A stretch of 64,000 nt of DNA from an uncultured candidate division Zixibacteria bacterium (GTDB lineage: Bacteria; Zixibacteria; MSB-5A5; RBG-16-43-9), in the NCBI GenBank assembly GCA_963713865.1, contig OY970208.1, positions 2,432,001 to 2,496,000 of the forward strand. The letters run 5' to 3'. The notes below the pieces were generated by a model that made no database searches, had not been told where the DNA came from, and saw only the letters and a list, made by a program, of their open reading frames with translations. Shown here piece by piece: positions 49,272 to 54,714 of the stretch (position 1 is its first letter; each line of letters begins with the position of its first letter). Made by a program: the position numbers and the translations under genes.

Positions 49272-49493
49272 AGCATCATCCTTCTTTGAAAATGGACTAA
49301 GCTTATCTTAATCTATACGAAATAAAATCGAAAATGAAAAGTGGAGTATAAAGCCATCAAGGTCTTGTCCACAGGATCCTGGTGAGGACTATAGCTTTAC
49401 TATTTTCTCTTGTTTGTGCGGGAATTCCCCAGAATGGGTCTTGACGACAATTCCCGAACCAACTTAAAACCAAAGGGCGAAGAATCTACAGAC

Positions 49494-49550
49494 GAAAGAG
49501 ATTTAGTCGGGCAGTTTTCAACAGCCCGACCTACTGCTACTACTGCTACT
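49494..49550. repeat. REP1 with duplicated CTACTG tail (left boundary of the cargo array)
   Basis: gaaagagatttagtcgggcagttttcaacagcccgacctactgctact; also at 50968-51015 and 52463-52510. Confidence 0.9.
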
Positions 49551-49586
49551 ATTTACAGAAAAAAAATTGCCAATTATTGACGAATA

Positions 49587-50627
49587 TTATAATAGAAAAA
49601 TATTATTTTCATGACATTTACTAATCATGTCATCAGGCCAAATACTGCTTTGGACTTCACCTATATGAGCCTTTCGAAGGTAAAACATGCAAAGCCGCGA
49701 TTGGCCGATACCACCTCCAATAGAAAGTGGCAATTCGTCATTGAGCAGACGCCTGTGGAAGTATAAATCTTTTCTTTTCATTTCACCCTTAATCTTCAGT
49801 TGTCGCAACAGCGTTTCAGCATTTACTCGTATTCCCATTGAAGAAAGCTCATAGGCACAGTTTAAAATCGGGTAGTAAATCAATATGTCTCCATTCAATC
49901 CCTTGTATTTACTACCAATGGGTGTGGACCAATCATCATAATCTGGGGCTCGACCATCATGCGGTTTGCCGTTTTTCAGGCTGCCGCCAATCCCGATGAT
50001 AAAAACAGCACCGTACTCGTTGCACACAGCTTTTTCCCTTTCATCGGGCGTCAGTTCTGGATATCTTTCCTCTAGTTCTTCACTATGTACAAAAGTAATG
50101 TCTTCCGGAAGGATGGGCTCGATGACGCTGTATTGATGGCAAATATATTTTTCTGTTCTTTTTATGACATCATATATTTTTCGGACAACACCTTGGAGAT
50201 AATTTAGGTTTCTTTCGTTTGGTGATATCACCTTTTCCCAATCCCACTGATCCACATATAGCGAATGCAGGTTGTCCAGACATTCATCTGATCGAATGGC
50301 ATTCATATCGGTGTACAGGCCTTCACCATGCTGAAAATTATAATCGGCCAGCATCATACGCTTCCATTTAGCTAAGGATTGCACGATCTCTGCATTAATA
50401 TCATCCAAAGCCTTTATCTTAAAAGAAACGGGTCTCTCTACACCGTTTAGGTCGTCATTGATACCTGTACCTGCTTTGACAAACAGAGGTGCCGTAACCC
50501 GTTGAAGGTTCAACTCAAATGATAAATTGATCTGGAAAAATTCTTTTATTAGCCGGACTGCTTTTTCCGTTTCTTTCAGATCCAACAATGGTTCATACTG
50601 TTCCGGGATAAATAAACTTGTTCTCAT
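49587..50627 (-). CDS. asnA: Aspartate--ammonia ligase
   Basis: NDDLNG, VQSLAKWKR, YVDQWDWE, HDGRAPDYDDW, IGGGIGQSR. Confidence 0.95.
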   Translation of the reverse strand: MRTSLFIPEQYEPLLDLKETEKAVRLIKEFFQINLSFELNLQRVTAPLFVKAGTGINDDLNGVERPVSFKIKALDDINAEIVQSLAKWKRMMLADYNFQHGEGLYTDMNAIRSDECLDNLHSLYVDQWDWEKVISPNERNLNYLQGVVRKIYDVIKRTEKYICHQYSVIEPILPEDITFVHSEELEERYPELTPDEREKAVCNEYGAVFIIGIGGSLKNGKPHDGRAPDYDDWSTPIGSKYKGLNGDILIYYPILNCAYELSSMGIRVNAETLLRQLKIKGEMKRKDLYFHRRLLNDELPLSIGGGIGQSRLCMFYLRKAHIGEVQSSIWPDDMISKCHENNIFLL

Positions 50628-50696
50628 AAAATACCTCCTTTCATATCGCTGTTAGCAAATTCAAATCTCTCGCTTATTAGATATAATCATCTGAAG

Positions 50697-51015
50697 GCCT
50701 AACATAGGTTTATCTGTACTAATAAAATTACAATTACGGCTATTTCTAACCATAAAAACCTCCTTACTAACTTGTAATTTTATTTAATCATTTACTTTAA
50801 TCGCAAGCAGTTAGATAATAAATATCTTATAAACTTACAATCTTTTATACAGCTAAAAGAAGTCGCATAAAATGAAAATTAAAATATATCTGTAAACAAG
50901 ATAAATTGCCTTGTTTAGATATGCAAGTAAAATTCTTCCGTCAGGTCAGGGGACCTGACGGTCACGTGAAAGAGATTTAGTCGGGCAGTTTTCCACAGCC
51001 CGACCTACTGCTACT
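50697..51015 (-). repeat. Repeated REP / promoter / attI-like block, copy 1
   Basis: Aligns with 52193-52510 and (without the REPs) 54365-54600; minus strand TTGCAT-17-TATCTT; ends GATAAACCTAT-GTTAGGC. Confidence 0.85.
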
Positions 51016-51087
51016 GACTGGAAGTACCCGAACCTTCGCTGGGGCGCGGTGGTAGCAACGTCGGCTGCACGCGCTTGTTAGCTCGCT
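51016..51087 (-). other. Truncated integron attC site (left half)
   Basis: AGCGAGCTAACAAGCGCGTGCAGCCGAC shortly after the glycosyltransferase stop; its reverse complement GTTAGCTCGCT matches the cassette start GTTAGCCCGCT at 10/11. Confidence 0.75.
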
Positions 51088-51108
51088 CTCCGTGATAAGT
51101 CAAAATGG

Positions 51109-51936
51109 CTACGATAGATTTGACTCCAAGATACTCAAGATGCCTCCATCAACGGTTTCGTCGAATTTGCGGGCAAACAAGTCTTGACTTGCCATCAAGA
51201 AATCAGCGTCTTTGGACGTGAAGTCTCTTGGACGTAACTTTATTGTTCCTAGCGGCACCCAGTCAATGGTCCTTTTATCGTCGTTCACAATAGTTGCCTT
51301 GTAGTTAGTATTCATTATTACCGTCTGAAAGAATCCTTCATCAGATATAAAGGTGTGCCGATAGAATCTCTTGAACCTTTTGACCTCAAAGCTGTAGCAC
51401 ATATATTCACAGAACTTCCTGCTCAAGATCATCCACTGATTTCCGATATAAGGAGTCACGCCTCGAAGATACGGTCGCTTGATAGGAGTGCGTAGTATCC
51501 TCTTGCTAAACTCGATACAGTAGTTCTCGATTCGAGATAGTGTATCAGGGCGTATCTCTCTCTGGTTAGCCACCTTGATGAAATCCCTTCCTATATTGAG
51601 GCTAAGAAAATCCTGGATGTGCGTCTGCGACTTTAGGGGGAAATCCTGTGCGCTAAGGTTTATGAAAAATTCCCATTCCGAGCTGATCTTCAATAACTCC
51701 TTGATGCCTCGCAATTCAGCATCTACCATGCTGTATCCCCCCCAAAGAATGCTTTGGCTTTTCAGCAAGGATGCGTTGGCAAAGCTTGACAAGAAATCTT
51801 GTATCTCCGTCTGTAATCCAACGCCTGATCTCTTATCCACATGAACCAGGTAATAGTTGGCGGGATGGTAAATTGCTCTAAAGAGCCTTTTGAACTGGTT
51901 AGGATACCGATGTACCAAGATGAGGTATGCGATCAT
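51109..51936 (-). CDS. GT14 / core-2 I-branching beta-1,6-GlcNAc-transferase family glycosyltransferase (cassette cargo)
   Basis: IAYLILVH, HVDKRS, WGGYSMV, INLSAQDFPL, DEGFFQT, FARKFD. Confidence 0.85.
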   Translation of the reverse strand: MIAYLILVHRYPNQFKRLFRAIYHPANYYLVHVDKRSGVGLQTEIQDFLSSFANASLLKSQSILWGGYSMVDAELRGIKELLKISSEWEFFINLSAQDFPLKSQTHIQDFLSLNIGRDFIKVANQREIRPDTLSRIENYCIEFSKRILRTPIKRPYLRGVTPYIGNQWMILSRKFCEYMCYSFEVKRFKRFYRHTFISDEGFFQTVIMNTNYKATIVNDDKRTIDWVPLGTIKLRPRDFTSKDADFLMASQDLFARKFDETVDGGILSILESNLS

Positions 51937-52192
51937 GTCCTTAACGATCTCCTCTAATCTGTATCTTCCTCAATAATTAGCGGGAAACTAACTCTGCACA
52001 GCCTCTTTCACTCGTGAAAACCGAGGCTACGGGCAACTTTCCCACAGTTATTGAGAATATACTATAACTTGTATCTCTCGAATTTCTATCATGGCAAGCC
52101 TTTCATGGTTAGGATATGGCTATGCCAGAATTATATTCCGAATACGACGGCTTGGCCGAAAAAAGGGGCGACACCTTTGCATACAACGAGCG

Positions 52193-52510
52193 GGCTAACA
52201 TAGGTTTATCTGTACTAATAAAACTACAATTACAGATATTTCTAACCCATAGAAACTTCCTTGCTAACTTACAATTTTTTTTAATCATTCCCTTAATTCG
52301 CAACGGAAAGATAATAGATATCTAATAAACTTACCATCTTTTATACAGTTAAAAAAAGCCGCATAAAATGAAAATTAAAATATATCTGCAAGCAAGATAA
52401 CTTGCCTTGTTTAGATATGCAAGTGAAATTTTTCGTCAGGGCAGGGGACCTGACGGGCACGTGAAAGAGATTTAGCCGGGCAGTTTTCCACAGTCCGACC
52501 TACTGCTACT
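52193..52510 (-). repeat. Repeated REP / promoter / attI-like block, copy 2
   Basis: As copy 1 with scattered substitutions; ends GATAAACCTAT-GTTAGCC. Confidence 0.85.
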
Positions 52511-52514
52511 TGGC

Positions 52515-52688
52515 TTATGCGCTCCGGTTGGCGAACGATCGACCAGCGTTTACACCGGAACCAAACCCTGTTGCAAAGAAACCGATTTTTGCTGCCAGCG
52601 AGACATCTCTCCAAATCACAATTGAGAAGACAACCGCAAAAACAAAAAACATGATTGATATCCCCATAAGATTTTTGTTTGACCTCAT
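52515..52688 (-). CDS. Small membrane protein (57 aa, cargo)
   Basis: AAGGAG RBS; MRSNKNLMGISIMFFVFAVVFSIVIWRDVSLAAKIGFFATGFGSG... Confidence 0.6.
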   Translation of the reverse strand: MRSNKNLMGISIMFFVFAVVFSIVIWRDVSLAAKIGFFATGFGSGVNAGRSFANRSA

Positions 52689-52746
52689 CCTAATATCTCC
52701 TTCGTGAATTTTAAAATTACAGCCATATTCACACTCAAACCCGGCT

Positions 52747-52800
52747 ACCCAACACAGGTTAATCTGTACCAATAAAATTACAATTACGGCTATTTCCAAC
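52747..52800 (-). repeat. Partial attI-like copy bounded by two GTT cores
   Basis: GTTGGAAATAGCCGTAATTGTAATTTTATTGGTACAGATTAACCTGT-GTTGGGT. Confidence 0.8.
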
Positions 52801-52810
52801 CAAACTATGA

Positions 52811-54328
52811 TTAGCTTTCCTGTTCGGTAGCCTTTGCCCTTTCCTCATAAGACATATCTGCCAGGCGTTTAACTTCGTTCACATCAAGGCCCAATCCTTC
52901 CGCTACGCGACGGCCATAATCCTGGTCCGCTTTATAAAACAAAGCTGTCTGGCGAAATTGAATGCGTTTTTTCGCCTTGCCCAGGTGGTCCACTATGTTG
53001 CCGATCAGGTGATCCCGGTCCTCATCCTGCATAACTTTGCGATAGAGGTTTCCAGGTTGAACAAAGTCATCATTAGGAAAATTAAAGGGGAAACGCCCCG
53101 CCTGGCCTGAAAGTTCAAAAGGAGGTTCGCCTGTTGCGGGATCCGGCCCGGGGCCGTCAAAACTGTTGGGCCAGTAATTGGGTCCACCCCCTCCGTTGGC
53201 GTCAACACGCATGAAACCGTCACGCTGGTAATTGTTTTCCAAAGCGCATTTAGGCGCATTGACTGGAATAAGATGATAATTAGGACCCAGTCTATGAAGG
53301 TGCGTATCATGGTAAGAAAAAACCCTTGCTTGCAGCATCTTATCCGGTGAAACGGCGATTCCCGGGACTACGTTTCCCGGGCAAAAAGCCGCCTGCTCTA
53401 CTTCTGCAAAATAGTTGACGGGGTTACGGTTTAAAACCAGCTTACCAATTTTGACGGGTGGGACTTCTTTATGCGGCCACACTTTAGTGATGTCAAAGAT
53501 ATCCCAGGGGAAATCCTTGGCTTTCTCTGGTGTTAGAATCTGCATCTCCAGCGTCCAGGAAGGATAGTCACCTCGTTCGATAGCATTATACAGATCACGG
53601 GTGGCGTGATCCGGATCTTCCCCGCAGAGCCTCTTCGATTCCTGGCGGGTCAGATTCTTGATACCCTGATCTGTCTTGAAATGGTATTGTACCCAGAAAT
53701 ACTCCCCCTTATCATTGTACCATTTGAAGGTGTGGCTACTATAACCGTTCATATGCCGGTAAGCGGCCGGTGTTCCCCTGTCGGAGAAAAGAATGGTAAC
53801 TTGATGAACGGATTCGGGAGTAAGAGACAGAAAGTCCCAAAACATGTCCGGATCAGGCAGATTGGTTGCGGGGCGCCTTTTCTGGGTGTGGATGAAGTCG
53901 GGGAACTTAAGTGGATCCCGGATAAAAAATACCGGCGTGTTGTTGCCCACGAGGTCATAATTGCCTTCTTCAGTGTAGAATTTCAATGCAAAGCCGCGTG
54001 GGTCCCGTGCAGCATCGGCTGAGCCCCTTTCACCACCAACGGTGGAAAAGCGAGCGAAGACTTCCGTGCGCTTTCCCACTTTTGAAAGAAACTTGGCTTT
54101 GGTGTACCTGGTCACATCGGCAGTAACTTCGAAATAACCAAATGCTCCAGCTCCTTTTGCATGCACGACACGTTCGGGAATTCGCTCACGGTCGAAGTGG
54201 GCTAATTTTTCCAGCAAATGGGCATCCTGCATGAGTACAGGTCCACGTTCACCGGCTGTCATGCTGTTCTGGTCGTCAGCCACAGGGATTCCAAAAGCTG
54301 TGGTTAGTCTTTTTTTCTCTTCTTTCAT
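52811..54328 (-). CDS. katA: Monofunctional heme catalase (small subunit)
   Basis: [40 protein letters not shown]. Confidence 0.93.
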
Positions 54329-54364
54329 GGCTTACCTCCTTCCTGTAATTATGAATCCATAGCT

Positions 54365-54600
54365 ATATAACATAGGTTTATCTGTACTAATAAAATTACA
54401 ATTACGGCTATTTCTGACCATAAAAACCTTTTTGCTAACTTATAATTTTATTTAATCATTTACTTTATTTACAAGCAGTAAGATAATAAATTTCTAATAA
54501 ACTTACCCTCTTTTATACGGCTAAAAGAAACCGCATAAAATGAAAATTAAAATAAATCTGAAAAAAAGATAACTTTCCTTTTTCAGGTATGCAAGTAAAA
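54365..54600 (-). repeat. Repeated promoter / attI-like block, copy 3
   Basis: Aligns with 50701-50930; ends GATAAACCTAT-GTTATAT. Confidence 0.85.
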
Positions 54601-54714
54601 CTTTTCCCTCCCTAAATTAAGCAGCCACCCTTGATGTGTTGTCAAGTGTCACTACCTGACAGCCATAAGTACTTGACGTCAGGAGGTAACTCCTGACGCC
54701 ACAATTCAACAATA

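Follow-up and report, generated by a model that had tools for sequence, protein, structure and literature searches.

Candidate attI copies separate cassette-like genes in a Zixibacteria genome without an intact integron integrase

In the genome of an uncultured bacterium of the candidate division Zixibacteria (GenBank assembly GCA_963713865.1, contig OY970208.1), similar blocks of DNA stand one after the other in front of unrelated genes, which raises the question of what these blocks are and how the genes came to lie behind them. The stretch of 64,000 nucleotides that was analyzed, referred to here as the window (G000:C1:2432001-2496000), belongs to a genome (G000) that consists of one 2.72-Mb contig with 40% G+C; positions are those of the window unless a genome coordinate is indicated. 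An earlier interpretation made from the letters alone (the sequence-only reading) had described the locus as an archive of integron cassettes without an integrase, in which each gene has its own promoter and its own attI-like site. The comparisons reported here support the interpretation that the blocks derive from attI, and that the locus is a cassette array of integron type whose genome has no integron integrase.

A repeat search of the window returned a 243-nt repeat three times, at 50700–50942 (block A), 52196–52438 (block B) and 54368–54610 (block C). With block A as reference, block C is 89% identical, and block B is 79% identical in an ungapped comparison and 88% identical by BLAST. The end of the block forms a 59-nt repeat family, which has a fourth member at 52744–52802. 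On the minus strand, the first ~48 nt of the block are a promoter-like segment with the sigma-70-like arrangement TTGCAT-17 nt-TATCTT, present in all three full copies. All four copies share the end ...AACCT(A/G)TGTT, after which they continue as AGGC, AGCC, ATAT or GGGT, and beyond that the sequences are unrelated. After every unit there is an 85-nt repeat resembling a repetitive extragenic palindrome (REP; 49457–49541, 50931–51015, and 52426–52510). Its hairpin CGTCAGG..CCTGACG (H2) has ~25 further matches when G000 is searched by BLAST and is thus a dispersed short palindromic extragenic repeat; the part GTCGGGC..GCCCGAC (H1) occurs in G000 only at these three places, and is found behind other cargo genes in metagenome loci. 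REP H1, H2 and block form a repeated unit of ~330 nt, with 85–96% identity among copies. The description of three blocks and a short piece that diverge after GTT in front of unrelated cargo was therefore confirmed by the repeat search, by reading the minus strand and by Pfam.

The blocks resemble the DNA that follows an integron integrase gene (intI). In the metagenome locus L159, the DNA after the stop codon of a truncated integrase open reading frame (ORF) is identical to blocks A, B, and C at 174, 164, and 166 of 197 nt, respectively (83–88%), and the last integrase codons with the stop (CAGATATAATTTAA) through GTTAGGC are collinear with the G000 blocks. The 77-aa ORF itself matches positions 240–313 of TIGR02249 (integron integrase) with 104 bits, against 70 bits for XerD, and its nearest longer relatives are proteins of ~320–330 aa that carry the source name 'integron integrase', the best of which is 72% identical. 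When the integron integrase of G014, a genome of the same order, was compared with all loci by tblastn, L159 was recovered (residues 276–345, 63% identity) together with short ends in L203 and L223; decayed intI ends are also kept in L203, L166, L188, and others. One of the closest full-length integrases (P0005) is named by its source as coming from a 'candidate division KSB1 bacterium'.

Complete integrons are present in the class, with 7 of 285 genomes above the TIGR02249 cut-off of 265 (a wider search at the level of the phylum covered the same 285 genomes). In the complete integrons of G171, G014, and G031 (362–486 bits), an attI-like end follows the intI stop at ~190–200 nt, on the strand of intI, with cargo behind it. 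These ends read ..ATATAAACATTGTTAGGT in G171, ..ATATAACCATAGTTGGGC in G014 and ..ATATAAACAATAGTTAGGC in G031, next to ..GATAAACCTATGTTAGGC for the G000 block. Their simple site consists of ATAAAC or TATAAC, 3–4 nt, and GTTRGGY. The simple site of the block, ATAAAC-CTAT-GTTAGGC, has the two inverted boxes of an attI site, with GTTRRRY as the right box and the crossover at G|TT, and a GGTTAGAAATAGCC repeat lies upstream of it.

The junctions between block and cargo carry the corresponding signature. Behind modules (the terminal ~80 nt of the block) in metagenome loci, a rough attC detector found classical attC sites of the form GCCTAAC..CAGCGGAC....GCCGCTGA..GTTAGGC. In all three single-ORF cases with a detected attC (L170, GCCTAAC; the second module of L166, TCCTAAC; L231, GCCTAAC), the R'' box is fully complementary to the G and the six cargo bases that follow it, which is the expected product of an attI × attC insertion at G|TT. 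Within the G000 locus, the attC half behind the glycosyltransferase gene of family GT14 has the R'' box AGCTAAC, complementary to its own junction GTTAGCC at 6 of 7 bases. The post-intI homology of L159, the integrons of the same class and these fits between R'' and junction support the proposal that the block is attI-derived and that the array lies in an integrase-less genome, and the expected link of the block to intI and attC is seen only through relatives, where truncated or decayed intI 3' ends and classical attC cassettes lie beside copies.

The module is not confined to the locus. A search of the 2.72-Mb genome with nhmmer found eight copies with E values of 1.4e-10 or lower; the next match had E = 2.3, a gap that argues against a chance match. 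Four copies lie in the locus, three in an accessory island between mnmE and mnmG (668.3, 669.9, and 672.3 kb) and one at 83 kb, and all eight are directly upstream of a gene and on the same strand as that gene. By BLAST, the module is present in 14 of 41 related genomes from three families of one order, often with a spacing of 0.7–2 kb, and copies in relatives are also found beside rtcB and nadE. The 62-nt module is the sole sequence that G032 and G016 have in common between nadE and rsmI, with both flanks different. A metagenome scan with a 23-nt core yielded 82 instances on 80 contigs, with 68 distinct downstream contexts. Across these contexts, conservation declines gradually upstream, to background by about position −75, and the information content downstream is zero 4 nt after ATGTT; AGGC is the commonest continuation (21 contexts), and GTTRRRY fits 35 of the 67 readable contexts (hand tally of tetramer counts). 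The expectation that other copies would diverge at GTT thus held in 68 distinct metagenome contexts. The proposed capture of whole segments, each consisting of the cassette promoter (Pc), attI and first cassette, at one REP-marked locus found no such support, as copies also occur at the mnmE-mnmG island, at 83 kb and, in relatives, at rtcB and nadE.

Some local repeats accompany the modules of the island. A copy of ~85 nt from the 3' end of mnmE, stop codon included (G000:C1:668370-668453 and 673700-673785; L153), stands directly upstream of the module X668, and this copy and the true mnmE end bracket an island of ~5.2 kb that holds two more modules, a SieB-like gene and a truncated DNA-methylase remnant. 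A repeat of ~80 nt, AGAGCTTATAGG...CTTGCAGATT, lies ahead of two modules (G000:C1:668455-668540 and 669930-670015) and is also found in G003 (L043 8497-8544).

An intact intI was not found in G000. The best TIGR02249 match is a 99-aa fragment at 753928–754134 of the genome (106.7 bits against the cut-off of 265, model positions 247–315), 1.7 Mb from the array. This region (G000:C1:753844-754815) comprises a truncated integron integrase (last ~75 codons), an attI of a second type, that of G014 (..CCATATAACCATCGTTGGGC), and a 145-aa ORF, and represents a decayed integron platform. Matches to PF00589 in G000 are limited to one intact 300-aa Xer-like gene, one split gene and the intI fragment. The split Xer-like tyrosine recombinase (G000:C1:1580083-1580902) is read as ORFs of 264 aa and 67 aa, owing to a frameshift or a sequencing error. 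None of the eight other genomes of the family has intI, though the module is present in seven of them, and intI was found in 2 of 34 genomes of the order.

A complete attC was likewise not found in the locus (49–55 kb of the window) with a crude detector that gave 43 sense versus 52 antisense matches in 542 kb; only the R''-L'' half behind the GT14 gene (51084–51060) was recovered, in agreement with the claim that attC sites had been removed or halved. Elsewhere in G000 the detector pointed to two isolated attC-like hairpins (G000:C1:524546-524621 and 197883-197972), and the other 37 genome-wide matches were mostly chance-like, one of them lying inside a 16S rRNA gene. Among the repeats downstream of the G171 integron, an attC array was not obvious. 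With no intI alongside and with cassettes that lack a complete attC, the array falls outside the definition of a complete integron, and it is not an integrase-less cassette cluster of the CALIN category either, for which at least two attC and no nearby integrase are required, since no complete attC was detected in the locus.

Without a working integron integrase of its own, the G000 cell cannot itself bring about IntI-dependent excision or insertion. The sequence-only reading held further that the genes can no longer be excised, which goes too far: the integrase IntI1 excises attI1-aadB-attI1, an attI1-ORF-attI1 arrangement, at ~100%, by which the authors explain the rarity of such arrays (PMC12901181), so that excision could still follow if an integrase were provided in trans. 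This attI-ORF-attI instability would be expected to disappear once the integrase is lost.

All features of the array lie on the minus strand, and are described here in that direction. The first part runs from block C over the catalase gene, the 58-nt delta-attI and a small ORF to a REP pair, and the rest from block B over the GT14 gene, the attC half, a second REP pair, block A, asnA and REP H1 to glcD. Block C (54368–54610), with its promoter-like segment and a full copy of the attI region, has its crossover G at 54371 (TT at 54370–54369) and heads the catalase gene (52811–54328; PF00199, 5e-201), the cassette of which starts with TTATAT. A few bases past the catalase stop begins the delta-attI (52744–52802), ~58 nt that correspond to the 3' part of attI only, with the crossover G at 52753 followed by TTGGGT. 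The succession of catalase stop, 58-nt delta-attI and G|TTGGGT is the form of a delta-attI-type cassette, in which a partial attI replaces attC; with intI absent from G000, it lies outside any integrase-bearing integron. The cargo behind the delta-attI is a 57-aa hydrophobic ORF (52515–52688) without a Pfam family, which is paired with the catalase in the same-genus genome G001 too. The REP pair behind it (52426–52510) was identified by repeat search and BLAST, as were the other REPs, and consists of H1, here with a GTCGGAC..GCCCGGC stem, and H2 (CGTCAGG..CCTGACG).

Block B (52196–52438), likewise a promoter-like segment plus attI copy, has its crossover G at 52199, followed by TTAGCC, and a predicted upstream ORF (uORF) in it is broken by a 1-nt insertion. 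The glycosyltransferase gene (51109–51936; GT14, Core-2/I-branching type; PF02485 Branch, 1.3e-42) starts ~260 nt downstream of this crossover, and the spacer (51937–52196) is conserved in G001, G008 and metagenome copies. The attC remnant behind it (51060–51084) was read by eye, in comparison with classical attC of related metagenome loci, as a 5' half with R'' AGCTAAC, a spacer, and L'' CAGCCGAC. The next REP pair (H1 and H2, 50931–51015) precedes block A (50700–50942), with TTGCAT at 50926–50921, TATCTT at 50903–50898 after 17 nt, the attI region at 50892–50697 and the crossover G at 50703, followed by TTAGGC. The last cargo gene is asnA (49587–50627; Pfam AsnA, 2.7e-108), and its unit is closed by a REP H1 copy (49457–49541).

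The asnA of the array is a second, horizontally acquired copy, 49% identical to the native asnA of the genome (G000 2707008-2708069). The asnA copies of relatives are at most 52% identical to it and match the native gene; its best outside matches (59–68% identity) come from several other phyla, without a donor context. Other modules precede SieB-like, BrnT, PEMT-like methyltransferase, Hypoth_Ymh, lactonase and S15 peptidase genes and many ORFs without a family. The cargo is accessory and typical of cassette content.

The promoter-like segment and the start codons inside the block bear on whether the block is an integron site at all. In 15 of 25 distinct contexts, the attI region is preceded by REP and TTGCAT/TTGCTT-17-TAT(C/T)TT, and in eight by decayed intI ends (hand tally). 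In the family f4, TTTTACTTGCAT (TTGCAT/TTGCTT) stands 17 nt from TAATTT inside the attI core. The same motif with the right spacing in two architectures favors the prediction of a real −35 element. A simple promoter/terminator scan, which is uninformative in such AT-rich DNA, omits TTGCAT-17-TATCTT (8 of 12 matches, threshold 9). A Shine-Dalgarno-like GGAGG with ATG or GTG occupies the same position in 38 of 56 contexts. In 17 of 35 cases, the stop of the uORF is no more than 15 nt away from the start of the cargo, and there are four in-frame fusions. These signals, including the f4 motif inside the module, and the position of the module always directly upstream of the next gene on the same strand, would also suit a portable promoter or leader unrelated to integrons, that is, a conserved 5' untranslated region with a regulatory uORF (an arrest or attenuator peptide) or a structured RNA, which spreads among accessory genes. 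We consider this very improbable. The leader peptide as a conserved entity was rejected, since there are two frames among genomes and 1-nt indels in DNA that is still conserved, which indicates that the DNA is under conservation and not the peptide. An RNA structure found no support either: single-sequence folds were weak (z −2.3 to +0.8), RNAalifold returned 0 pairs on 27 copies, and the candidate stem AGGTTTAT/ATAAACCT showed no covariation and pairs in 73.1% of cells versus 73.4% in shuffles. Rfam gave nothing in the blocks and two sub-threshold matches elsewhere, so that the blocks do not qualify as a riboswitch or structured cis-RNA. Such a leader accounts for neither the upstream intI end, nor the GTTRRRY bias, nor the matching R'' of attC; an attI could have a regulatory role in addition without any conflict with the integron origin. 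A mimic of a dif/Xer site was also considered and rejected, as the module is unlike the dif-like site of the chromosome. The latter (ACGTCCTATAATATATATTATGTAAACA, G000:C1:1918419-1918446) lies at the maximum of the cumulative GC-skew (1.91 Mb); the GC-skew minimum is at ~2.70 Mb and dnaA at 678 kb, an unusual arrangement for a single contig.

Variation among genomes and metagenomes bears on how the array is built and whether its layout is real. G001 has the same flanks (glcD and Ldh_2) and three module copies in another order and with other content, without asnA, and its catalase copy lacks the ~190-nt distal part of the block; between its GT14 unit and Ldh_2 there are five extra ORFs (L041, G001:C2, 14476-17092), one of them similar to a helix-turn-helix or transposase protein by eye. 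In the metagenome runs X3 and X5, the joint 49463->50936 represents a form without the asnA unit, and contigs of four metagenome runs also show single-unit deletions between blocks, blocks shorter by 107–108 nt and one other order. Further metagenome joints (50752->52323 and 50799->52371) likewise fall within repeats, and with breakpoints inside repeats the present-day change looks like homologous recombination. Such joints, and the ~330-nt unit with 85–96% identity between copies, would be expected if segmental duplication and homologous or illegitimate recombination of a unit of REP, promoter and leader were all that built the array, so that no integrase placed the G000 cargo and the likeness to attI is inherited and irrelevant. 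The lack of an attC remnant after asnA, the small ORF and the catalase, and a short AGTAGCAGT duplication at the junction of asnA and REP, would fit this as well. We nevertheless find it distinctly improbable, because illegitimate joins are expected to scatter, whereas the four G000 junctions all coincide with the G|TT at which canonical cassettes begin in relatives, and the GT14 gene keeps an R''-L'' half of attC, the R'' of which fits its own junction at 6 of 7 bases. That the tandem layout is an artefact of dispersed repeats that were collapsed or mis-joined is hardly credible. Repeats of 243–330 nt with 79–96% identity can mislead assemblers, the whole stretch is not covered by any one metagenome contig, and coverage of the asnA part is thin in the four runs. 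However, the genome is a single 2.72-Mb contig, the copies differ by 11–21%, which is enough to distinguish them, the independently assembled G001 has three module copies at the same locus, and a contig of 1462 nt (X2 record 11) bridges GT14, block B, REP, and the small ORF. The tandem arrangement described by the sequence-only reading is therefore supported in its GT14 to small ORF part and by G001, and the asnA unit is spanned by no independent contig of the four metagenome runs.

We thus return to an integron origin as the best explanation. It is probable that each block reproduces the attI region found in a family of chromosomal integrons, and that the locus is an array of attI-type and delta-attI-type cassettes. 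The attI copy would run from the last intI codons and stop to the crossover G|TTRRRY (~196 nt), with the promoter-like segment of ~48 nt ahead of it, and the source integron family would have had intI, attI, and cassettes on one strand. The cargo genes would be cassettes that start exactly at the attI crossover, and the downstream boundary of a cassette would be the next attI copy (full or 58-nt delta-attI) instead of attC, with REPs between. Observations of different kinds enter into this explanation, namely the homology after intI, the anatomy of the junctions, the canonical attI × attC products in relatives, the absence of intI and the population variants. The array may have formed by attI × attI or aberrant attI × attC events while an integrase was available, and would now change through recombination between the ~330-nt units of REP, promoter piece and attI. 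Judged by its motifs, each attI copy probably provides the following gene with a promoter and a Shine-Dalgarno/ATG start; with its own signals for each gene, expression would be independent of the distance from a single Pc. The captured genes appear to be frozen in place with their own expression signals, although both the function of these signals in transcription and translation and the present immobility are inferred.

Several observations weigh against this explanation. No intact intI adjoins this exact attI type in any genome or metagenome locus that was searched; the integrase of L159 is truncated, and the intI ends in 8 of 25 distinct upstream contexts are only decayed ones. Around the complete integrases of the order, a hidden Markov model of the module had no match, at distances of up to 40 kb in G014 and up to 20 kb in G031 (best E 2.6). 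The link therefore rests on shared architecture and on the type of simple site, and sequence identity to an integron that is active plays no part in it. For the ~48-nt promoter-like part, comparison with the coding sequence of intI gave no significant similarity (scores at or below shuffle means), and a relic of the intI coding sequence inside this piece was rejected on local alignment with L159. The frame of the uORF varies, the uORF is broken in some copies and some lack a start codon. As the attC detector is crude, the finding of no attC in the locus is weak, and the explanation does not account for the placement of cargo between attI copy and REP.

There is, in our estimate, a small chance that in this lineage, at the level of the order, the integron has been rebuilt as a capture system that uses attI only. 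Cassettes bounded by full, double-stranded attI sites, which bring their own promoter and translation start, would then move among loci and strains in the absence of a resident IntI, either via the ~330-nt homology units or by an Xer-type or trans-supplied integrase that acts on attI × attI (the ancestral double-strand pathway). If true, there would be a class of integron-derived arrays invisible to attC-based tools.

The array type is found repeatedly in an order of uncultured bacteria from sediments and wetlands, with 14 of 41 related genomes and 68 distinct metagenome cargo contexts. Since integron surveys rely on intI and attC, they would miss an attI-separated array whose genome lacks intI. 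Such arrays are natural material for three questions named as open in the recent literature (PMC12901181): the origin of delta-attI, the rarity of attI-ORF-attI arrays in the presence of an integrase, and the fixation and expression of cassettes. They also suggest a route for captured genes (a second asnA, catalase, toxin-antitoxin, SieB-like superinfection exclusion), each of which could gain expression signals after loss of the integrase.

Among known integron features, ORF-11 of attI1, reportedly described by Hanau-Bercot et al. in 2002 as a short ORF with its own ribosome-binding site that spans the crossover, offers a parallel to the uORF. Here too, a Shine-Dalgarno-like site and ATG lie inside attI, and the predicted ORF crosses G|TT into the cassette and often ends at the start of the cargo. 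The two differ in that the frame is not conserved here and coupling does not occur clearly more often than by chance.

The earlier statement that no similar system has been described was too strong in view of delta-attI cassettes, an attI1-aacA4-attI1 array (PMC12901181) and integrons with intI transcribed toward attI (PMC3607928). 'Unusual delta-attI-type cassettes' are described for class 1 and 2 integrons, as is the attI1-aacA4-attI1 array, and they are recombined by IntI1 (PMC12901181). The likeness is that the 3' site of the cassette is a partial or complete attI ending in G|TTRRRY, and not attC; in G000, the catalase is directly followed by the 58-nt delta-attI, and the small ORF and GT14 by REPs and a full attI copy. 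A truncated attC with only R'' left is described there as well (PMC12901181). However, the published delta-attI cases lie within integrons with intI, are mostly remnants of 8–12 nt and represent single events in resistance arrays (PMC12901181), whereas here the separators are mostly full attI copies of ~196 nt with a promoter-like piece and REPs, without an integrase, in eight copies per genome at three loci and in 14 of 41 genomes.

In Treponema-type integrons, intI is transcribed toward attI (PMC3607928), and intI, attI and cassettes lie on one strand, as they do in G171, G014, and G031, in the truncated L159 and at 753.9 kb of G000. According to the accessible text, the Treponema integrons keep one attI and normal attC arrays, and a multiplied attI is not mentioned in it (PMC3607928). 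Integrase-less cassette clusters (CALIN) and cassette-less platforms (In0), two of the IntegronFinder categories, are comparable as degenerate integron states (PMC4889954). CALIN are defined by their attC sites (PMC4889954), whereas the G000 locus, in which no complete attC was detected, would be an attI cluster lacking an integrase and would not be expected to be reported by an attC-based search. Partial precedents for the array thus exist.

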